Under the pieces are notes generated by a model. It searched no databases and had not been told where the DNA came from. It worked only from the letters and a program-made list of their open reading frames with translations. A DNA stretch of 29,603 nt from Planctomycetota bacterium. Its GTDB lineage: Bacteria > Planctomycetota > UBA8108. The DNA is taken from NCBI GenBank assembly GCA_003509045.1, contig DODI01000617.1, positions 1 through 29,603 of the forward strand. Direction: 5' to 3'. Every line of letters starts with the position of its first letter. The stretch's first letter is position 1. This document shows, piece by piece, positions 1 through 9,197 of this stretch. A program made the position numbers and the translations under genes.

Positions 1-1918
1 CCTGCCGCAGGGCCAGGCCGGGGACAGGAATCAGGTTCTCATCAAGGCGGTAGGGTTTGAGGTCATCTGCGCCTCTCTTTGCCGGCAGGATCAGGGAAGC
101 CAGGCCAGTGGCTATTCCCGGCAGCGCCAGGAAGATGAGGCTGGCGACGAGGTTGTAGAAGGTGTGGGTCATGGCAATGTGGAACCCGACGTTTTCCTGC
201 AGGGGGTGAAAGAGGCTGCCGGGAGTGACCTGATCAATGAACCAGAGCAGCAGAGATGTGCCATCCCGGGGCATCAATGAGAGGACGGAAAACAGGATCG
301 TTGTCAGGAGGTGAATCACCAGGATGCAGATGCCCAGGCGGCAGGTGTCGCGATTCTTGAAGAAAGACCGAAAGAGGCTGCTCAGTCCCGAGCCCAGGTT
401 GGCTCCGAGGATCAGCGGCACCATTGAGAGGGGGGCGAGGATTCCTCGCGAGGCCAGGAGCACCGCGATGATGACCACCAGGTTCGAGGTGCGAAGAACC
501 AGGCCGATTCCAGCTCCAGCCAGAAGAAGATAGGTGAAGTTTCCGGCCATGACCGCCCAGGGCTGCTGAAAGGACAGCGAGGCCGGGAGCACATCTGATT
601 TGAACCTGGAGCTCATCTCGAGCTGCTCAATACCTGAGCCGAGCAGGCTCCAGCTTGCCAGCGCCAGGGCGGCGCCGAGAAAGATCCTGCTCCAGTGAGC
701 CAGGCCGAACGAGCGCGGCAGAACGACCAGCAGGAGGCCGAGGCCTGCCAGGGGCGCGATGAGGAAATCGATCCGCAAGGCGAGTATCTGGGGGAGGGCT
801 GTCGCGCCCAGCAGGGCTCCAAGAAGGAGCCCCATGGCTCCCTGGGATTTCAGGAGGCCTCCGTTTACGAAGCTCATCAGGTGGGAGGTTACGGCCGAGT
901 GGGATTGGAAGGTGATCCCGGCAAGAATTCCGCCGAGATAGCCAAGGATTCGGTTCTTCGCCATGCGGCCCGTGGCATGGTGCAGGTGAGGGCCGAGGAC
1001 AATCAGGAAACCGTTGGCGAGAAATCTTACGCCGAGCAGGAAGAAGATCAGGCCAACCGAGATCTCGACAGCGATCCGCAGCCAGTCGATCGCCATGACG
1101 GTGAAGATGATTCCCCTGATGGGGGGGTCGTCTTCGCGTCCTTCAATTTCCGCGAGTACGCGATAGGTTCCTGCGCGATCGCCGAGTGTAAGATCTGTTC
1201 CTTTGCGAACACCGTCTTTGCCGGTTTTGGCGCGCCTGTTGTTCAGGCTCGCCGGCTCGCCGCGAACCGGAGGTTCTCCCGCGATTCTCATATGGACAAT
1301 GCGTCCCTCGAGAGGCACCAGTTCTCCGGTGTCCTGGCGGGCCTGCAATCGCAGGGCGATGGGGATCTCCGAGCCTACAGCGGCCTCGATATTGTCAGCC
1401 AGCTTCTCCACACCGCTGACCACCCGGAACTGTTCGTCCAGATCCTTTCGGCCCTGCCTGGGGATGGAGGCTTCTATTCGCCAGTCGCCGTTCTTATTAC
1501 CAAGTCGTATTCGCACGCTGGCGGTTCCGGACGCATCGGTCTTGACCTCGACATTGTCGAGGCGTTCCGCCGTCTCTTTCTCCCCATCCAGGATGAAAGA
1601 TGGTGAATCTTCTGATGGGCCATTCCCGGATTTGGAGTCTTCGGCGAGACCCTCGAGACGAAAACGGAAGGTGACCGATTGGTTTTTCAGCGGCCGTCTT
1701 CGGCCCCTTCGCCCGAGGAAATCCCGGCTGCTCTGGCCAAGCACACGAACGACCAGGGGTTTGGGAAGAATCTCCCCCGGGAGAGCGCATTGGTGGTTTC
1801 CCGAGAGGGATTCAATGAGCGCGGGGCGGTCATCTGTGGGCGGTTTGTAGCATCCGGTAATGGTACAAAGACAGACCGTCAACGCCAGGATGACTGCATT
1901 ATTAGTCAATAAGCGCAT
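1..1918 (-). CDS. Na/Pi-cotransporter (NptA/SLC34-like) family protein with N-terminal lipoprotein signal and two Big_1-like Ig domains; 3'-truncated at the window edge (start of PhoU-like region)
   Basis: Manual translation, absent from the ORF track because it has no stop in the window. An open frame runs from ATG 1918 to base 1: MRLLTNNAVILALTVCLCTITGC... (lipobox ITGC), then about 250 aa of beta-type sequence. From M275 (nt 1096) there is a polytopic region, including VGLIFFLLGVRFLANGF, FQSHSAVTSHLMSFVNGGLL, LILGANLGSG and HIAMTHTFYNLV. It ends in LDENLIPVPGLALRQ, which resembles the linker into the PhoU domain of this family. Confidence 0.85.
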   Translation of the reverse strand, partial: MRLLTNNAVILALTVCLCTITGCYKPPTDDRPALIESLSGNHQCALPGEILPKPLVVRVLGQSSRDFLGRRGRRRPLKNQSVTFRFRLEGLAEDSKSGNGPSEDSPSFILDGEKETAERLDNVEVKTDASGTASVRIRLGNKNGDWRIEASIPRQGRKDLDEQFRVVSGVEKLADNIEAAVGSEIPIALRLQARQDTGELVPLEGRIVHMRIAGEPPVRGEPASLNNRRAKTGKDGVRKGTDLTLGDRAGTYRVLAEIEGREDDPPIRGIIFTVMAIDWLRIAVEISVGLIFFLLGVRFLANGFLIVLGPHLHHATGRMAKNRILGYLGGILAGITFQSHSAVTSHLMSFVNGGLLKSQGAMGLLLGALLGATALPQILALRIDFLIAPLAGLGLLLVVLPRSFGLAHWSRIFLGAALALASWSLLGSGIEQLEMSSRFKSDVLPASLSFQQPWAVMAGNFTYLLLAGAGIGLVLRTSNLVVIIAVLLASRGILAPLSMVPLILGANLGSGLSSLFRSFFKNRDTCRLGICILVIHLLTTILFSVLSLMPRDGTSLLLWFIDQVTPGSLFHPLQENVGFHIAMTHTFYNLVASLIFLALPGIATGLASLILPAKRGADDLKPYRLDENLIPVPGLALRQ

Positions 1919-1961: not shown

Positions 1962-1991
1962 CTTTCACAGGATCTTCACGATAAGTTAACT
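1962..1991 (+). promoter_or_regulatory. Pho-box-like / OmpR-family operator: three direct repeats at 11-bp period
   Basis: TTCAC (1964-68), TTCAC (1975-79) and TTAAC (1986-90) are exactly 11 bp apart, in the divergent intergenic region between the Na/Pi gene and ppx. Confidence 0.5.
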
Positions 1992-2086: not shown

Positions 2087-2992
2087 ATGAAAAATTATAC
2101 CGGAACGTCTGCTAAAAACGCTTATCTCGAGTTCGGCTCGACCTCGATCAAGCTCTATATCGTACCTTCTGTCTCAGAAGGAGGAGATGGGGTAGAGAGA
2201 GAGCGCAAGGTACCCTGGAGCCTCGGCTACGATGTCTTCAGCTATGGCCGCATCAGTCCACGGACGATGGCGCATTGCGTCTCTACCCTGAAAGAGCTGC
2301 GTGAAGAGTTCTCCGGAATATCTTTCGAAGATGTTACCGCGGTTGGTACGGCGGCCCTGCGGGAGGCGCAGAACGCCGAAATTTTCAGGCGTCTACTCGA
2401 AAACGAGCTCGGGTTGCGGATCCAGGTGATCGAGGGGGGTATCGAGGCTTTCCTGCTGGAGACAGGCTTCAGGAGCATGGTTGAAAAATTCCCAACAGCT
2501 CTCTTCGATCTTGGCGGCGGCAGCAACGAGATTATCGAATATCTCAATCCGGCCTCTACCCGAAAGACAAGTATCCCTGTAGGGGCGATCAGGCTCCACT
2601 GCCAGCTGCGAAGGGCGAGGACGCTCTACAATTACGTAGAGCAGGGACGGGTGATTGTTGAGAGAGAGATGCGGGAGCACATAGCTGGAAGTATGCCCCG
2701 GTATCCGGAGATGCTCGGCACCGGTGGAACAGTCAGGGCTATCGTGAAGAGCCTCGGTAGAGAATCCTTCACCATCGAGGATCTCCAGGGGCTCATCCAG
2801 CGAGAGATTCATGGAGATGTCTGGACCAATATGCCGCGCCACCGCCGCCTGCTGTTTCTCCCCGGGATCCTTTCTGTCGAGGCGCTCTTTATGACCATGG
2901 GGGTGCGAACCATCACCTATCGCAAGGCCTCCGTGAAAGAGGGACTCATCTCCTTTACCAGCATGCTGCCGGCGATGGGGCGGCCCTCTTAG
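2087..2992 (+). CDS. Ppx/GppA family phosphatase (short form, no HD domain)
   Basis: ASKHA motifs LEFGSTSIKL, VGTAALREAQN, IEGGIEAFL (catalytic Glu), FDLGGGSNE, SIPVGAIRL, GTGGTVR and SVKEG. Confidence 0.85.
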   Translation: MKNYTGTSAKNAYLEFGSTSIKLYIVPSVSEGGDGVERERKVPWSLGYDVFSYGRISPRTMAHCVSTLKELREEFSGISFEDVTAVGTAALREAQNAEIFRRLLENELGLRIQVIEGGIEAFLLETGFRSMVEKFPTALFDLGGGSNEIIEYLNPASTRKTSIPVGAIRLHCQLRRARTLYNYVEQGRVIVEREMREHIAGSMPRYPEMLGTGGTVRAIVKSLGRESFTIEDLQGLIQREIHGDVWTNMPRHRRLLFLPGILSVEALFMTMGVRTITYRKASVKEGLISFTSMLPAMGRPS

Positions 2993-3408
2993 GCGCCTGC
3001 CCGGCCCGGCTCCAGCAATTCGAGGGCCCTGGCGAGCAGTTCGCGAACAGGCTCCTTGCGGAGGAGCTCTGATGCCTCCTCGAAACCGCACCAGCGTCTT
3101 GTACGGCAATCGCGCTCCTTCCAGGTTTCCTCTGCTTCGTAGCTCAGCAGGAACATCTGTACCGAACAGGGCTGCTTGCGTCTGCGGTCAGGATAGCTGC
3201 CAACGGCTTCGCCAATGATCGCGCCGCTGATTCCAGCCTCCTCGGCGCACTCTTTCAGGGCTGTTTCTTCCGGGCTCTCTTTATTTCCGATGACACCCTT
3301 TGGGAAGATCCAGTTTCCCTTTCGCGAGGTGATGATGAGGAATTCCCAGCCGGCAGGACCCTGGCGGAAGGGGATGGCGCCCGCCTGCTTGAGTGGCTTC
3401 GTGTTCAT
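2989..3408 (-). CDS. NUDIX hydrolase, DIPP/Ap6A-hydrolase-like
   Basis: QAGAIPFR...FLIITSRKGNWIFPKG followed by the Nudix box GVIGNKESPEETALKECAEEAGI. Its stop codon overlaps the ppx stop. Confidence 0.88.
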   Translation of the reverse strand: MNTKPLKQAGAIPFRQGPAGWEFLIITSRKGNWIFPKGVIGNKESPEETALKECAEEAGISGAIIGEAVGSYPDRRRKQPCSVQMFLLSYEAEETWKERDCRTRRWCGFEEASELLRKEPVRELLARALELLEPGRAGA

Positions 3409-3556: not shown

Positions 3557-4168
3557 TTACTTCTTGGCAAAGTTCGCCTTGGCGTATTTAGCTTTGCAGT
3601 TGTTGCAGCAGAAGTACTTCGCTTCGCGCTTGGTGTGTACCACCTGCGTGGCAGCGTTGGCCGCTTTACCGCTGATCGGGCATTTGCCTGTGTCAGCCTT
3701 GGCGGCGAGCTTGGCGGAATGCTTTTTCTTGCAGTTACCACAGCAGAAAAAGGTCTTCGTGCCGTTGACGTTCACGAACTGGTCGGCCGTGGCGGCTTTT
3801 CCAGATATGGGGCAGAGCTTCGCCTTACCGGCCTTGGCGCTGAACTTGTTGGCCTTGGCGTATTTGCCGGCGCAATTCTTACAGCAGAAGCTGACAAGCT
3901 GCGAGGTCTCGTGGATTAACTGGGTACCCTTCTTCGAGGCCTTGCCGCTGTACTGGCACTTTCCAGGTCCCGCATCGGCAATCGTCTTGCTGTAGCTCTT
4001 CTTGCAATTATTGCAACAGAAACCGACAGCATTGCCGTTAACTTCGATCGAGATCTTGGGGTTGGCAGCGTTGCCGCTGATGGGGCATTTGGCGGTTTTC
4101 TCAGCCGTAGCCACGCCACCGTAAATCAGTAGTAAAGCAACGGGGATAATCGCTAATTTCTTTTTCAT
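3557..4168 (-). CDS. Secreted Lys/Ala-rich protein with four TRASH/YHS-like Cys repeats (putative metal-binding)
   Basis: Start chosen at MKKKLAII (ATG 4168, with GAGGCAGGA SD-like sequence upstream). Signal peptide ...GGVATA|EK, then four C-(P/Q)-x-S-G...F-C-C-x-N-C motifs. Confidence 0.85.
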   Translation of the reverse strand: MKKKLAIIPVALLLIYGGVATAEKTAKCPISGNAANPKISIEVNGNAVGFCCNNCKKSYSKTIADAGPGKCQYSGKASKKGTQLIHETSQLVSFCCKNCAGKYAKANKFSAKAGKAKLCPISGKAATADQFVNVNGTKTFFCCGNCKKKHSAKLAAKADTGKCPISGKAANAATQVVHTKREAKYFCCNNCKAKYAKANFAKK

Positions 4169-4204
4169 TTCCTGCCTCTTTGTATTTTCCACAGAACCTC
4201 CTCA

Positions 4205-4475: not shown

Positions 4476-6473
4476 TCATTTTCCGGACGTGATGTCATCC
4501 TCTTCATCGAGGTTCTCGGCGAGGTCCTTGAGAAACCCGTTCAATGTGGGGAGCAGGTCAGAGATCGTCAGGTCGATGGCGAGAGCATCCTTTTCTTCCC
4601 GGGTTGAAAGCACCGCGCTCTTCATGTTCTTTAGAGCGAGAATCGGGACACTTTTTTGGAGAACTGACAAGGCGCTGAAGATCGGCTTCGGCCGCAGGTA
4701 GAACACCTTTGATGCTTCCGCTGCCGGCAGGGGTAACCTGTTCCTGCCTTCCACGCTGCGGCTGCGTACGGCAGCCTTCAGGATGGCCGGAGACAGTGCG
4801 ACGATAAACTGGTCCTTGATCCTGATATAGCCGGGACGTATTCCAGGGAGTGGCTGGAGGAAGTGATGGGTCGGGCTGCCTTGCTTTTTCTCCAGCGGTT
4901 CTCGGAGGAAAGAGAGGCTCTCTGATGCTCCCGGCAGGCTGGAGGAGTATTTTTCAATGGCATCTCGAAGGGCCTTTTCTCCAGCTGCCGGATCCTTGAA
5001 CTGGAGCGCGACAAAGTAGAGGGGGCGGTAGATTTGAAGGGCGGAGAGGTTGCCCAGTTCCTTTACCGACGACGAGATCTTGAGTAGAGCGGCGTTCGGG
5101 TAGGAGCCGATGACGACAGAGCGGATCTGGTCAATCAGCAGGCTGAAGGGTTTTTTTTGCAGCAGCCAGGCCATCGCAGCCCGGAGGTTTTTATTCAGGG
5201 GGCTGATCTGGGAGCCCGGGAGCTCTTCGAATCCGGTGATGATATCCGAAAGCTTTTTTCTCAGATCCTTTGAGGAGAATGCGAAGAAGCCGAGGGATTC
5301 TGAAGGTATGGACCTGATGAGCTCCGGGTCAATCGGGTCTGTCGCCAGGCGGCCAAGGAGATCATCCTTCGCAAGGGGGTTTCTCGCCGTCCACATGGTC
5401 GCGTGTAGTGTGTCGGTGTCGGGGACTGTCGAGATGGCCAGAGAAACCGGGCCGATTTCGGCGAGGTTAAAGGCGTTGGCTGTTTCCTTGAAGCCTAGGC
5501 CCGCTGAAAATGGGTAGCCTCCATCGATGAAGAAAAACATCAGGGAGTCTTTTTTTTTCGACCAGGCGTTTACGAAATCAGAATTGGTGGCCAGCGACAT
5601 GGAACGGGCCGAGCGGCGCTTGACGGCCTCTTCAACCAGTTGCCGGGGTCGTCCCAGGACCACCACTTTTTCCCCAGCCGCGAGAAAGTAGTTCTCATCG
5701 ACCTCCTCAACCTCGTAGAGCGGCATATCTTGTATGAAGCCGACGACCCGCGCCTTTTTTTTTGCCAGGGACAGGATCGAGGTAATGTAGCCCGAGAGCG
5801 CGTCGCTTTTTCCGGCTGAAAGCACCGCGAGGTAATCTTTTTCAGGGTCGCCCTTCGCCGGCACTCCAAGCGCGACACCTCCCATTTTTGAGAGCTCTCT
5901 GAACATGGCCTTGCTGAGGAAGGCGGAGATCCATCCGGTGGAACCTGTGCCGGGTATCTGGGCTGGGCCATCTTCCTGGGCCTCTACCGCAAGGGTCCTT
6001 GATGAATCGACAGAGTTCTCAAACGGCGTTCCCCGGATCGAGCTGGAGAGGCGGATGAGCTCGTTTCCGGGTTTTACCATCTCCGCGTAGAAGAGCATCT
6101 TTTCCGGCATATAGCTGGCAGGGGTGTCCCAGAGGCGGCTTGAGAGGTACTCTCGCGCCACCTCGGCGAGCTCCGACTGGCCCGGGTAGCGGGCGAGAAG
6201 CTCGAGGAATTTTCTCCGGGCAGGTTCGTCCTGGCCCAGGGCATCAAGGCAGGTGGCCTCGCCGAGGAGGGTGCGGGCTATGGTCTGCGCGGGCAGTCCG
6301 GTTTTTCGGATGCCCCGATAGAGTCGAAGGGCTTCGCGCGGGTTCCCGTCGATCGATTCAAGGTAGGCCGCCTTCTCAAGGAGCACCTCGGCTTCGGCGG
6401 CATCATCAAGAGCCAGCAGTGAGCCGGTGAGCAGCAGGAGGAAGAAGGTGATGGGGATGCGCGCGAGTCTCAT
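4476..6473 (-). CDS. Secreted protein with N-terminal TPR-like helices and a large DUF3352-like alpha/beta region
   Basis: 665-aa ORF with signal peptide (MRLARIPITFFLLLLTGSLLA). TPR-like segments LLEKAAYLESIDGNPREALRLYRGI and LLGEATCLDALGQDEPARRKFLELLARYP. The start overlaps the regulator stop (ATGA). The DUF3352 likeness is an impression only. Confidence 0.7.
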   Translation of the reverse strand: MRLARIPITFFLLLLTGSLLALDDAAEAEVLLEKAAYLESIDGNPREALRLYRGIRKTGLPAQTIARTLLGEATCLDALGQDEPARRKFLELLARYPGQSELAEVAREYLSSRLWDTPASYMPEKMLFYAEMVKPGNELIRLSSSIRGTPFENSVDSSRTLAVEAQEDGPAQIPGTGSTGWISAFLSKAMFRELSKMGGVALGVPAKGDPEKDYLAVLSAGKSDALSGYITSILSLAKKKARVVGFIQDMPLYEVEEVDENYFLAAGEKVVVLGRPRQLVEEAVKRRSARSMSLATNSDFVNAWSKKKDSLMFFFIDGGYPFSAGLGFKETANAFNLAEIGPVSLAISTVPDTDTLHATMWTARNPLAKDDLLGRLATDPIDPELIRSIPSESLGFFAFSSKDLRKKLSDIITGFEELPGSQISPLNKNLRAAMAWLLQKKPFSLLIDQIRSVVIGSYPNAALLKISSSVKELGNLSALQIYRPLYFVALQFKDPAAGEKALRDAIEKYSSSLPGASESLSFLREPLEKKQGSPTHHFLQPLPGIRPGYIRIKDQFIVALSPAILKAAVRSRSVEGRNRLPLPAAEASKVFYLRPKPIFSALSVLQKSVPILALKNMKSAVLSTREEKDALAIDLTISDLLPTLNGFLKDLAENLDEEDDITSGK

Positions 6474-7159
6474 TTGATCAGCTTGTAGCCGAAGCCATGG
6501 ACAGTGATGATATGCCTGGGGACCTTGGGGTCGTCCTCGATCTTGCGCCGGAGACTGACGATGTGATTGTCGACGCTGCGGTTCAGGGGCTCGTTTTCGA
6601 GCCCCCAGATCTCACTGAGCAGGTGCTGGCGGTCGATGACCGACCCAGGTTCCTCTGAGAGTATTTCCAGGATCTGTGTTTCATAGTGTCCCAGGGGGAC
6701 ATCTTTACCGTCGATCTGCAGGAGGGATCTGTCGAGAAGGATCGTCGCCTTTCCAACGGTGAGCTTCTTTCTCTTCTTCGGCTGCACGATGGGCTCGAAT
6801 CGTCTCAGGGCAGCCCTGATTCTTGCCATGAGTTCCTTGAGATCGAAGGGCTTGGTGATGTAGTCGTCCGCTCCCAGGTCGAGCCCCTTGACCTTGTCGA
6901 CCTCGGTGCTGAGCGCGGTGAGCATGAGGATGGGGGCGCGGATGCCGTTCTTCCTGATAGCGTGGCAGGTCTCGAAACCATCTATGCCCGGCAGCATGAT
7001 GTCCAGCAGGATACAGTGGGGTTGTCCCTTTACCGCGAGGTCGAGTCCATCTTCTCCAGTGTGGGCGATGGCCACCTCGTAGCCTTCAAATTCAAGGTTG
7101 TCCCTCAGGCCCATGGCTAGGTCGGGTTCATCTTCGATCACCAGGATCTTAGCGGTCAT
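6470..7159 (-). CDS. OmpR/PhoB-family response regulator
   Basis: KILVIEDE, LLDIMLPG (phosphoacceptor Asp), GADDYITKPF, and winged-helix RSVDNHIVSLRRKIE...TVHGFGYKL. Confidence 0.95.
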   Translation of the reverse strand: MTAKILVIEDEPDLAMGLRDNLEFEGYEVAIAHTGEDGLDLAVKGQPHCILLDIMLPGIDGFETCHAIRKNGIRAPILMLTALSTEVDKVKGLDLGADDYITKPFDLKELMARIRAALRRFEPIVQPKKRKKLTVGKATILLDRSLLQIDGKDVPLGHYETQILEILSEEPGSVIDRQHLLSEIWGLENEPLNRSVDNHIVSLRRKIEDDPKVPRHIITVHGFGYKLIK

Positions 7160-9197
7160 CTTCTGGCTCCATCTCCGTTCCAGTTTCCAGCGGGAAGGCC
7201 AGCGTAAATTCGCTGCCCTCTCCAGGCTTACTTCTCAGGCGGGTTTCGCCTTCGTGTGCTCTCATGATGTGGCTGACGAGGGAGAGACCCAGGCCGCTTC
7301 CTCTCGTCCCCAGGGCACGGGCCTCCGCGGTGCGATAGTAGTCGTCCCAGATACGCTGCTGCTCCTCTTCAGCTATGCCAATGCCATTGTCGGCAATGCT
7401 GACCAGCAGGAACCTTCCATCGCTCCACCCGCGCACGGTGAGGTCTCCCTTCTCAGGTGAATAACGAACCGCGTTCTGGAGCAGGTTGATGAAGGCCTGG
7501 GCAACGGCCTCTTCATCGGCGAGTACAGCCGGCAGCGATGCGGGAATATCTCGCGTGCAGGAGAAATCCTGCTCCGTGATCTGGAGGAAGTAGGCATCTA
7601 AGGTCTGGTTCAGCACCGGGGCCAGGTCTGTTTTTTTGAGATCGTAGTTTTTTTTGCCGGCGTCTATTCTCGAGAAGTTCAGTACGTTTCCTATGAGATG
7701 GCCCAGGCGATCGCTCTCCCTGTTGATGACCTCGAAGTACTCCTGGCGTTTTTCTTCGCCCTGTACGCGGTCAAACTGCAGGGTCTCCGAGCAGAGCTTG
7801 ATGAGGGAAAGCGGGGTCTTGAGCTCGTGGGACACATTGGCGACAAACTCGGTCTTCATCCTGGACAGGTTCATTTCTTTTCGCATGGCTTGGCGCAATA
7901 CCAGCAACCCGCCTACCAGGGTGAGGCCGAGGATGCCGGATAGAAGCCCTGCTATAGCGAAGGGCCGGCGAGCGGCGCCAAGTCGTTTTTCCCATTCCTC
8001 TTTTGTCTGGCCGATAGCAAACCACCCGAAGTTTCCGCCAAGGCCGTCGTAGGTGATCATGGAGTCCTTCCTGGCCGGGTCCAGCAGGACCACCTGGCGA
8101 GAACCGGATTCACCAAGGCGGAGCAGTTCACTGTTCAGGTCGCTGAGCAGCCTTTCAACATCTACAATCATTCCGGCACCCTTGATCCCGGCAGTGTCGA
8201 CGACTGCGGGCGTGGGCTGCCAGGCGACGCCTACCTTGCTTCCGATCCCGCGCCAGGACCATCTTGGTGAGGAAGAGTCACCTCTTGCTGCCAGCTCCCG
8301 GGGCAGCAAGACATCCCTCACATGCTTCACGGCGAGCTGGATCGGCTTACGGGCATCAAGCTTTTGGAGCGCTTCATTGAGCTCCCTGGTGGGGGAGAGG
8401 CCGAGGTTCTGCAGGAGCTGCATGGAGCCCTGGAGGTAAGACTCTCGCCTGACAAAACCGTTCTTTTGCGGGCCGGAATCTATGAAAGAGAGTCCGCGCG
8501 TAAGAACCTCCTGCACGGCTTTTTTTCTTCCCTGGCTCGACAGGGTCTCGGCCATGGCCAGGCTGAGCTGGGCAGGGGTGGGCCAGGCGCTGTAGGCAAG
8601 CGAGCTGGGGGCGTTCTTCAGCAGGCCAGCGTAGATAGACTCGGCGGCCGCAGGCTGGTCGTGCCGGTTATAGAGCGCCGCCAATTGGGTGCGGGCCCGA
8701 ATCCTCCAGGCCTCCGGAATGCTGGTCCGGTTAGAGGCGGCTTCCAGGGATCGGACCTTGCGCGCGAGGGGAGCCTGGGAATGGGAGAGCCTGACCGCCT
8801 GGCGATATTCCGCCGGCGGCACCCCGGTATCGCTGGACGGGAACGGGGTTGTTCGTGCCGGCTGATCGAGCCCCTCGATCTCTCCATTTGTCCGGATACG
8901 GAAGGGGAGCTCAAAGAAGCTCTCCGGAGTACCGGGAGAAGGGGGCGGATCTTTTGCATCTCCAAGGGCAAAGGCCTCGATCGATTGAAACGCATCTTTT
9001 TCGCGTTTCCTGATATGTGAGCGCAGCTGGCTCGCGAGGGTGGATGAATAGCTCCTCTCGGAGACAAAAAGGAGTACCTCCATGTCACGGTATTGCTTGT
9101 AGGTAAGGTATCCTCCAAGCGAGCAGAGGCCGAGGCAGACGATGATGCTGCCCCAGATGGCTGTCTCGTAGATCCTGATTTTATTGCGAACAGGCAT
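7149..9197 (-). CDS. Membrane sensor histidine kinase (HisKA + HATPase_c) with ~380-aa helical periplasmic domain
   Basis: Two TM segments; H-box EFVANVSHELKTPL; N-box NLLQNAVRYS; G boxes DNGIGI and GSGLGL. Confidence 0.95.
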   Translation of the reverse strand: MPVRNKIRIYETAIWGSIIVCLGLCSLGGYLTYKQYRDMEVLLFVSERSYSSTLASQLRSHIRKREKDAFQSIEAFALGDAKDPPPSPGTPESFFELPFRIRTNGEIEGLDQPARTTPFPSSDTGVPPAEYRQAVRLSHSQAPLARKVRSLEAASNRTSIPEAWRIRARTQLAALYNRHDQPAAAESIYAGLLKNAPSSLAYSAWPTPAQLSLAMAETLSSQGRKKAVQEVLTRGLSFIDSGPQKNGFVRRESYLQGSMQLLQNLGLSPTRELNEALQKLDARKPIQLAVKHVRDVLLPRELAARGDSSSPRWSWRGIGSKVGVAWQPTPAVVDTAGIKGAGMIVDVERLLSDLNSELLRLGESGSRQVVLLDPARKDSMITYDGLGGNFGWFAIGQTKEEWEKRLGAARRPFAIAGLLSGILGLTLVGGLLVLRQAMRKEMNLSRMKTEFVANVSHELKTPLSLIKLCSETLQFDRVQGEEKRQEYFEVINRESDRLGHLIGNVLNFSRIDAGKKNYDLKKTDLAPVLNQTLDAYFLQITEQDFSCTRDIPASLPAVLADEEAVAQAFINLLQNAVRYSPEKGDLTVRGWSDGRFLLVSIADNGIGIAEEEQQRIWDDYYRTAEARALGTRGSGLGLSLVSHIMRAHEGETRLRSKPGEGSEFTLAFPLETGTEMEPEDDR

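Follow-up and report, generated by a model that had tools for sequence, protein, structure and literature searches.

The window analyzed here, the 29,603-nucleotide contig DODI01000617.1 of the Planctomycetota bacterium assembly GCA_003509045.1, begins with a gene for a protein of the Na_Pi_cotrans/PhoU type in which the substrate-site motifs of SLC34/NptA transporters are replaced by a different signature, strongly conserved throughout a clade of marine relatives. Proteins of this clade keep most serines of the pocket for inorganic phosphate (Pi), have lost most of the residues equivalent to the sodium ligands of SLC34A2, carry a basic residue at one of two pocket positions, and are encoded next to a divergent gene for a Ppx/GppA-family phosphatase. 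Judging from sequence comparison, we give about even chances to the reading that the window protein is able to transport phosphate or an anion close to it, with a coupling that is altered and probably independent of sodium. The first-pass annotation of this DNA had called the motifs degenerate and had connected them with the added immunoglobulin-like (Ig) domains, arriving at a possible transceptor or an altered specificity; an altered coupling or specificity is a reasonable suggestion, since the site does differ from that of SLC34/NptA, but neither the degeneracy nor the link to the Ig domains held up.

A conserved clade with a replaced substrate-site signature

The gene and its remodeled sites are located as follows, with equivalent residues numbered after SLC34A2:
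2-1918, minus strand: coding sequence of the remodeled Na_Pi_cotrans/PhoU protein, 639 of about 849 codons, the 3' end being cut by the contig start
896-919, minus strand: tip of hairpin 1, G-I-T-F-Q-S-H-S (QSHS at 896-907), in which Gly replaces Thr while Q and the first and last S remain
788-820, minus strand: motif of transmembrane helix (TM) 2, GALLGATALPQ (GALLGAT at 800-820), with L, A, L and P as the equivalents of N189, T192, T195 and N196
479-505, minus strand: tip of hairpin 2, G-L-V-L-R-T-S-N-L (RTSN at 482-493), with Gly instead of Thr four residues before the motif and Arg as the Q431 equivalent
386-406, minus strand: TM5 motif GANLGSG, in which the Asn of the sodium site Na3 is kept, the T465 equivalent is Ser and no TTT run follows any more
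311-325, minus strand: TM6 equivalents of H491 (sodium site Na4) and N495 (Na3), here I and H, as recognized by family contrast

The four motifs reported by the first-pass annotation were all found exactly where it had placed them when the minus strand was read by hand from the sequence, and its registration of them, which it had itself named as a weak point, is supported by the Pfam repeats, by phmmer and profile alignment to SLC34A2a and by the helix breaks of an AlphaFold model. In both the phmmer and the family-profile alignment (profile E 2.5e-22), QSHS, GALLGAT, RTSN and GANLGSG pair with QSSS, GTNIGTS, QSSS and GSNIGTT of SLC34A2a (PDB 9z60). The model helix breaks exactly at Q-S and at R-T-S, the two re-entrant hairpin tips, and TM2 has its break at G-A-T, in agreement with the description of SLC34A2. 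The reference motifs QSSS and GANIGT were also rightly chosen for most of the family: among 117 representatives outside the clade, the Q/S/S/S residues of hairpin 1 reach 98/99/99/85% and those of hairpin 2 94/99/98/74%, and N and T stand at 77% and 94% in TM2 and at 94% each in TM5. Measured by this consensus, the window protein has QSHS and RTSN instead of QSSS at the hairpin tips, and the GxNIGT(T/S) pattern is absent from both TM2 and TM5, GALLGAT having lost both N and T and GANLGSG having kept N with T changed to S.

To place these deviations, homologues were collected by word-indexed and exhaustive HMMER searches (3980 hits at E <= 1e-3, 128 at E <= 1e-30), resulting in a set of 175 proteins, and trees were built without the motif columns in order to avoid circularity. 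Both trees were quick searches, run without bootstraps or approximately unbiased tests. The FastTree tree of 156 rows separated a clade of 37 representatives, including the window protein, with a support of 100 and a stem length of 0.99. With the N-terminal module also removed, the IQ-TREE tree (LG+C20, 52 rows) recovered the clade with the same support of 100 on a stem of 1.63 changes per column, compared with about 0.05-0.4 for the typical inner branches of that tree.

Within the clade, the replaced positions are themselves strongly conserved. Among 25 non-redundant core sequences with a mean transport-domain identity of 46%, only 25 of 336 columns are invariant, and R476, T477, N479 and L480 are among them. 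In the core clade, whose members average about 46% identity, the stretch LRTSNL shows no variation. Gly takes the place, in both hairpins of the clade, of the Thr that the family has four residues before each hairpin motif (97% and 96%) and that SLC34A2a has too. TM2 has the clade signature GAxLG(A/G)TxLPQ, and TM6 has lost the His and the Asn found elsewhere in 108 and 88 of 119 proteins, respectively. At TM5 position 506, where 52 of the 119 others have D or E, clade members always have A, G or S. The His of QSHS is in turn limited to the close relatives of the window protein, this position being S, H, A or W across the clade, and such freedom at the third position of hairpin 1 fits a residue that contacts Pi by its backbone only. 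Hence the motifs have not degenerated; a different signature has taken their place and is conserved by purifying selection, as the invariant R476, T477, N479 and L480 indicate.

The constant element of this signature is a basic residue. Arg or Lys occupies position 476 (the Q431 equivalent) or position 372 (the T192 equivalent) in 37 of 37 clade rows, as opposed to 3 of 119 others. In the thirty core members the basic residue is the hairpin Arg, and the TM2 position holds Ala, Gly or, in one case, Ser; the seven deep-branching members have Lys or Arg at the T192 equivalent, five of them together with the hairpin Arg. No conserved acidic residue compensating for the clade Arg/Lys was detected in a column contrast of the clade versus the family. 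As a separate observation, the hairpin 2 Gln is also sporadically replaced by Lys or Arg outside the clade, in P0128, P0163 and P0129 (LKSSSAS, FKSSTAT and LRSSAAT), so that a basic residue in hairpin 2 may be a recurrent solution in the family.

Residues conserved family-wide as parts of the scaffold or as hinges are kept in the clade, comprising G296, G303, G330, G354, G367, G371 and G394 as well as G415, G505, G509, N507, H585 and N589. All genome matches of the clade are metagenome-assembled genomes (MAGs) of uncultured marine Planctomycetota or Planctomycetia, and among 301 sampled genomes of the phylum, members were detected only in the order of the window's host. A literature search returned no description of this clade.

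Kept and lost ligand residues

The roles of the replaced residues can be read from SLC34A2, for which a recent structural study (preprint 10.64898/2026.05.25.727688) assigned the ligands of Pi and of the sodium ions. According to this preprint, Pi is held by the backbone NH groups of S160, S161, S433 and S434 and by the side chains of S159, S161, S432, S434, T192 and T465; the two Gln residues of the QSSS motifs make no contact with Pi and brace TM2 and TM5. It also assigns S433, T437, S438, T192, S193, N196 and H220 to Na2, N189, N224, N462 and N495 to Na3, and S160, S161, T164, T465, T466, T468 and H491 to Na4, and it describes a site without any basic residue, unlike that of the exporter XPR1. 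Mapped onto the window protein, the equivalents fall into the following sets:
Unchanged: S159, S161, S433, T164 and N462
Conservative replacements: S432 to Thr, T465 to Ser and S193 to Thr
Changed in repeat 1: S160 to His, N189 to Leu, T192 to Ala, T195 to Leu and N196 to Pro
Changed in hairpin 2: Q431 to Arg, S434 to Asn, T437 to Val and S438 to Ile
Changed in TM5 and TM6: T466 to Gly, H491 to Ile and N495 to His

Four of the six side-chain donors to Pi are therefore kept or conservatively replaced (S159, S161, S432 to T and T465 to S), S434 is replaced by the polar Asn, and only T192, now Ala, is lost, which suggests that the anion pocket is largely present in the window protein. The ion ligands exhibit a different pattern: N189 and N495 are lost from Na3, T192, N196, T437 and S438 from Na2, and T466 and H491 from Na4, so that none of the three ligand sets is found as in SLC34A2. 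By this alignment, Na2 and Na3 sites of the SLC34 type could probably not form, and Na4 would be partly eroded.

Domain architecture, order of events and partner gene

The window is an entire contig of a 632-contig assembly that is 72% complete. The coding sequence was assigned to the ATG at 1918, although an in-frame GTG also lies upstream at 1960; the full-length orthologue P0002 (849 residues, 99% identical to the window protein) starts at the equivalent of ATG 1918. The missing end of the protein has a counterpart on another contig of the same assembly, C462:1-315, which corresponds to the last 105 residues of P0002 with 93% identity. Besides the sites listed above, the gene encodes the following regions:
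1850-1918, minus strand: lipoprotein-type signal peptide ending in the lipobox I-T-G-C, a helix at residues 2-21 of the AlphaFold model
1088-1819, minus strand: two all-beta Ig-like domains, predicted to be periplasmic (secondary structure of the model and tandem beta-sandwich matches in Foldseek)
89-1084, minus strand: transport domain with two inverted Na_Pi_cotrans repeats (Pfam, genome profile scan, model and profile alignment)
2-46, minus strand: start of the linker into the PhoU-like tail, of which the first 15 or so residues are present (LDENLIPVPGLALRQ); L625, P633, A636 and Q639 are conserved family-wide

The transport domain matched PF02690 (Na_Pi_cotrans, the PNaS family TC 2.A.58) in two stretches with 87.8 bits against a cut-off of 29.1 (E 8.8e-25), and the profile scan of the window's own genome gave 76.4 and 24.7 bits for the same domain. 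Scores stayed below the cut-offs of TIGR00704 (Na/Pi-cotransporter II-related; 69 vs 210.1) and NF037997 (Na/Pi symporter; 48.4 vs 50), as was also the case for the full-length orthologue. The AlphaFold model of the 99% identical orthologue, which is confident (predicted local distance difference test score 82.9), starts with the helix of the signal peptide; the all-beta Ig-like domains follow at residues 34-168 and 170-277, and after them come the transport domain and a helical bundle of PhoU type. When the whole model was used in Foldseek, it returned Ig-like and PhoU matches and no SLC34 chain, so the link to SLC34 rests instead on sequence and profile alignment. Two features of Ig domain 1 were also observed, namely a basic loop, LG..RDFLGRRGxRxP, common to the clade and to the canonical Ig-fused group, and a clade-specific insert rich in acidic residues and Pro at residues 89-118 of the orthologue, where model confidence is low.

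The first-pass annotation had tied the motif change to the added Ig domains and had advised aligning Ig-fused homologues to see whether the two co-occur. The co-occurrence proved to be one-way. All N-terminally complete remodeled proteins have the Ig module, the three exceptions being probably truncated records, but the module does not imply remodeling: 27 representatives whose N-terminal module is 200 residues or longer have the fully canonical motifs QSSS/GANIGTT/QSSS/GDNIGTT. The module of these proteins is homologous to that of the window protein, whose N-terminal module alone matches it across both domains with an E of 7.6e-27, and the lipobox Cys is conserved in both groups (invariant in the remodeled group A1 and at least 90% in the Ig-fused canonical group A2). 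In the IQ-TREE tree, the remodeled clade and the Ig-fused canonical group lie on one side of a branch with a support of 96, and the clade nests inside that group with a support of 85. This nesting indicates that the Ig fusion came first and that the site was rewired later; a loss of the motifs caused by, or coupled to, the fusion is thereby rejected, the fusion being older and the homologous module occurring with canonical motifs.

The retained PhoU-like tail, also invoked at first, lies outside the window beyond its first 15 or so residues (2-46), and it is in the orthologues that it can be seen. These carry PF01895, residues 633-843 of the model match PhoU 4q25_A in Foldseek with a template modeling score of 0.90, and the family profile matches PhoU structures at 2.3e-11. 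The tail as such is no special clue, because ordinary NptA transporters carry one too (PMC13170248). In the clade, however, it departs from the family: E718, present in 95% of the family, is variable, as is D832, D722 is changed to E and E828 to F, so that the acidic PhoU signature is absent, and H796 is changed to W (numbered on P0002, residues 715-722 and 828-836, and seen partly on C462:1-315 of the window's assembly). The tail thus appears to have been remodeled along with the transport site.

Gene-neighborhood analysis revealed a second constant feature of the clade, which involves these elements of the window:
2087-2992, plus strand: divergent gene for a Ppx/GppA-family phosphatase of 301 residues without signal peptide (Pfam PF02541, 4.5e-26)
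2989-3408, minus strand: NUDIX hydrolase gene adjoining the Ppx-like gene, kept in many, though not all, clade loci
1964-1979, plus strand: direct repeat TTCAC-N6-TTCAC with an 11-bp period, the sole match in the window (0.07 expected by chance)

The Ppx-like protein scored 92.4 bits for PF02541 (threshold 27) but stayed below the cut-offs of the exopolyphosphatase model TIGR03706 (125 against 307) and of the GppA model (59 against 624). Its divergent gene was adjacent to the transporter gene in every clade locus with flanking DNA (L005-L018 and L042-L053, with transporter identities of 32-99%), and it is more conserved than the transporter itself. Conversely, none of 22 Planctomycetota loci with canonical motifs (L019-L040) had a Ppx/GppA gene within 1.5 kb. 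The two genes share a divergent promoter region of 168 bp, in which the region of the direct repeat is conserved among relatives of 78-95% protein identity; the first TTCA core is found in eight of eight aligned loci, and beyond about 78% protein identity nothing of the promoter could be aligned except this core. An 11-bp spacing is typical of OmpR/PhoB-family binding sites. A scan for sigma-70 promoters and terminators found nothing.

The wider gene content was surveyed for possible substrates of the partner enzyme. In the window's genus, the protein described here is the only Na_Pi_cotrans member and is accompanied by a PitA-type transporter and, in one genome, by PstS. Neither of the polyphosphate kinases, PPK1 and PPK2, turned up in two same-genus genomes (92% complete) or in G128, which are MAGs, nor did PPK1 in the window's own assembly; both kinases are present in the genomes G232 and G200. 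The RelA/SpoT domain, that of synthetases of guanosine tetra- and pentaphosphate, (p)ppGpp, was not found in any of 13 genomes of the order, likewise MAGs. A Ppx/GppA-family gene was always present in the genomes of the order, and in the genus the transporter-adjacent copy is the only clear one. As neither PPK nor RelA/SpoT was found, endogenous polyphosphate is doubtful in the genus, and a GppA-like role of the partner gene in hydrolyzing pppGpp is unlikely.

Among the genes further along, a 211-residue secreted-looking protein is encoded at 3557-4192 on the minus strand, having repeated Cys-rich modules of the TRASH type that may bind metal; a gene resembling it occurs beside feoB, close to the locus, in L005-L007. 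Encoded at 6470-9197 on the minus strand are a response regulator of the OmpR type and a 682-residue histidine kinase with a weak, sub-threshold TPR match, and directly downstream of them lies a 665-residue open reading frame without Pfam match (4476-6473, minus strand).

Proposed mechanism, alternative readings and related systems

These data fit the neofunctionalization of a transporter, with its scaffold, hinges, hairpins and anion pocket kept. We propose that the ancestor was a protein of the Ig-fused, PhoU-tailed NptA type, in which a burst of change centered on the binding core would have largely kept the helix-dipole, serine-lined anion pocket, replaced the residues that build Na2, Na3 and part of Na4 in SLC34A2, and put a fixed positive charge beside the pocket, as Arg at the Gln of the second QSSS or, in the deep branches, as Lys or Arg in place of the TM2 Thr that contacts Pi. 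The remodeled site would then have been frozen by selection. Binding of Pi, or of a close phosphorus oxyanion, would no longer depend on sodium ions of the SLC34 type, and the carrier may work together with the adjacent, presumably cytoplasmic Ppx/GppA-family phosphatase in the hydrolysis of phosphoanhydrides. Given an inside-negative membrane potential, an uncoupled anion carrier would favor efflux or exchange, and this is the direction of transport that we infer. In other transporter folds, relatives that work without sodium have Lys or Arg at the place of the sodium ion, ApcT and CaiT of the LeuT fold being examples.

A more specific form of this proposal, which is tentative and in our view rather improbable as a whole, is that the clade represents a subfamily of the SLC34/NptA fold in which sodium has been replaced by a built-in basic side chain, acting as a cation-independent carrier of phosphate or condensed phosphate in a two-gene module with the Ppx-like phosphatase. 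If true, this would be a new way in which phosphorus is handled in the ocean, and it would represent a natural experiment on the removal of SLC34-type coupling. Structures of SLC34 have only recently revealed a Pi site built from QSSS hairpins and four sodium ions with no basic residue, and the clade, conserved as it is, provides a natural case to the contrary within that fold, with the serines kept, most sodium ligands gone and an arginine added. It lends itself, by comparison with its canonical Ig-fused sister proteins, to finding out directly which residues couple transport to sodium. The module of transporter and Ppx-like phosphatase is an unannotated one in uncultured marine Planctomycetota, and the gene contents of the searched genomes, with PPK not found in the genus and RelA/SpoT not found in the order, raise the question of which phosphoanhydride these cells process. 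For annotation purposes, proteins of the clade should not be named Na/Pi symporter by homology.

Several points weigh against a sodium-independent carrier. The residue roles are taken from a single preprint on a vertebrate structure, and the sodium sites of bacterial NptA may differ from it; canonical bacterial members already lack the N196 equivalent. Na4 is lost only in part, with S355, T358, S524 and S527 remaining, and the TM5 Asn of Na3 is kept, so that some sodium coupling could persist. The Gln of SLC34A2 that is equivalent to R476 makes no contact with Pi (preprint 10.64898/2026.05.25.727688). The loss of the acidic PhoU signature residues could equally mean a changed signaling role. 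A simple breakdown of polyphosphate followed by export of Pi is also weakened, as neither PPK1 nor PPK2 turned up in the same-genus genomes that were checked.

Three functional alternatives were weighed against the carrier. The foremost, although unlikely, is a non-transporting sensor or transceptor, one of the options raised at first, in which the pocket would bind periplasmic Pi without sodium and the PhoU-like tail would relay its occupancy to a regulator. The family does provide a precedent for signaling, since the PhoU domain of Staphylococcus aureus NptA, a Na/Pi importer, modulates PhoPR signaling (PMC13170248), and in the clade most of the sodium ligands that the SLC34 cycle requires have disappeared, the changes in the tail (E718 lost, D722 to E, E828 to F and H796 to W) would suit a new partner, and the shared promoter contains a candidate direct repeat of the response-regulator type. 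Against it, the hinge glycines, both hairpins and the break of TM2 are conserved as in transporters, and the conserved partner is an enzyme and not a regulator. The vicinity of the gene holds no conserved signaling partner, the histidine kinase and response regulator at 6470-9197 being absent from beside the transporter in L005, L008 and L009, and PhoPR is reportedly lacking in Planctomycetota, among other taxa (PMC13170248).

Ranked after the sensor, and likewise improbable, is an importer that would take up a larger phosphorus anion from seawater, such as pyrophosphate, triphosphate or very short polyphosphate, for hydrolysis by the Ppx-like and NUDIX enzymes, both of which cleave phosphoanhydrides. 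A pocket that is enlarged and more positive, through Thr to Gly before both hairpins, Ala or Gly at the T192 equivalent and the added Arg, would agree with it, as would the exclusively marine MAG hosts and the position of the genus's only clear Ppx/GppA copy beside the transporter; with PPK1/2 not found in the two same-genus genomes and RelA/SpoT not found in the order sample, there is also no obvious endogenous substrate, yet these gene absences come from incomplete MAGs. On energetic grounds, moreover, an anion of higher charge would need more cation coupling to enter against an inside-negative potential, and it is the cation ligands that have been lost.

The most conservative alternative ranks below both: an ordinary Na+/Pi symporter whose motifs have drifted within tolerated limits. 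It is true that the fold of the family has been retained along with most serines in contact with Pi, that TM5 retains GAN-G-S and that other bacterial members show single deviations, but here about 20 core positions conserved in the family shifted as a set along a single, very long stem and have since stayed fixed. Human SLC34A2 loses its transport activity through T192A or S434C, and its T192K variant is disease-causing (preprint 10.64898/2026.05.25.727688). The NCBIfam scores, below both cut-offs, point the same way. Finally, a decaying, non-functional gene with truly degenerate motifs, for which only the surface impression of three deviating motifs out of four would speak, is practically ruled out, given that many MAGs have intact full-length orthologues (32-99% identity), that the new residues are invariant and that synteny is conserved.

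Returning to the carrier, which we favor, its nearest known counterparts are the Ig-fused, PhoU-tailed proteins of NptA type such as P0045, P0048 and P0024 (one with Pfam Big_1), which are uncharacterized and have canonical motifs. They share with it the lipobox Cys, the homologous two-Ig module, the two Na_Pi_cotrans repeats and the PhoU tail, whereas they keep IQSSSA/GANIGTT/VQSSSA/GDNIGTT, the TM6 His and Asn and the acidic PhoU motifs, and none examined has a Ppx/GppA neighbor. S. aureus NptA likewise joins a transport domain and a PhoU-like tail in one polypeptide but has neither the lipoprotein signal nor the Ig module; the comparison of its motifs rests on the family consensus. Vertebrate SLC34A2 (NaPi-IIb, PDB 9z60 series) has the same inverted-repeat fold with alignable hairpin tips and TM2/TM5 motifs. 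It differs in binding Pi without a basic residue and with a need for four Na+ sites, where the window protein has Arg and has lost most Na2 and Na3 ligands, and in having a large extracellular loop domain in place of N-terminal Ig domains and a PhoU tail.

Escherichia coli YjbB, finally, had been suggested as one of the comparators and deviates from the family motifs itself (QSSN, GADVGTA, YSSL and GANLGSG). It is encoded in E. coli K-12 by yjbB (L041:7732-9363), annotated as a putative Pi exporter. YjbB is reported to be insufficient for importing Pi (PMC13170248), and Motomura 2011, as cited in PMC7980370, is the source for its promoting Pi export and polyphosphate loss; this may serve as a loose precedent for the direction of transport proposed here, YjbB being no close relative. 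Like the window protein, it has a PhoU tail, and its TM5 motif GANLGSG is identical, while it lacks an Ig module, has Tyr and not Arg at the hairpin 2 position and keeps the TM2 Thr. Kinship by way of GANLGSG is rejected, as YjbB sits on its own long branch elsewhere in the tree, and the shared motif is therefore apparently convergent.

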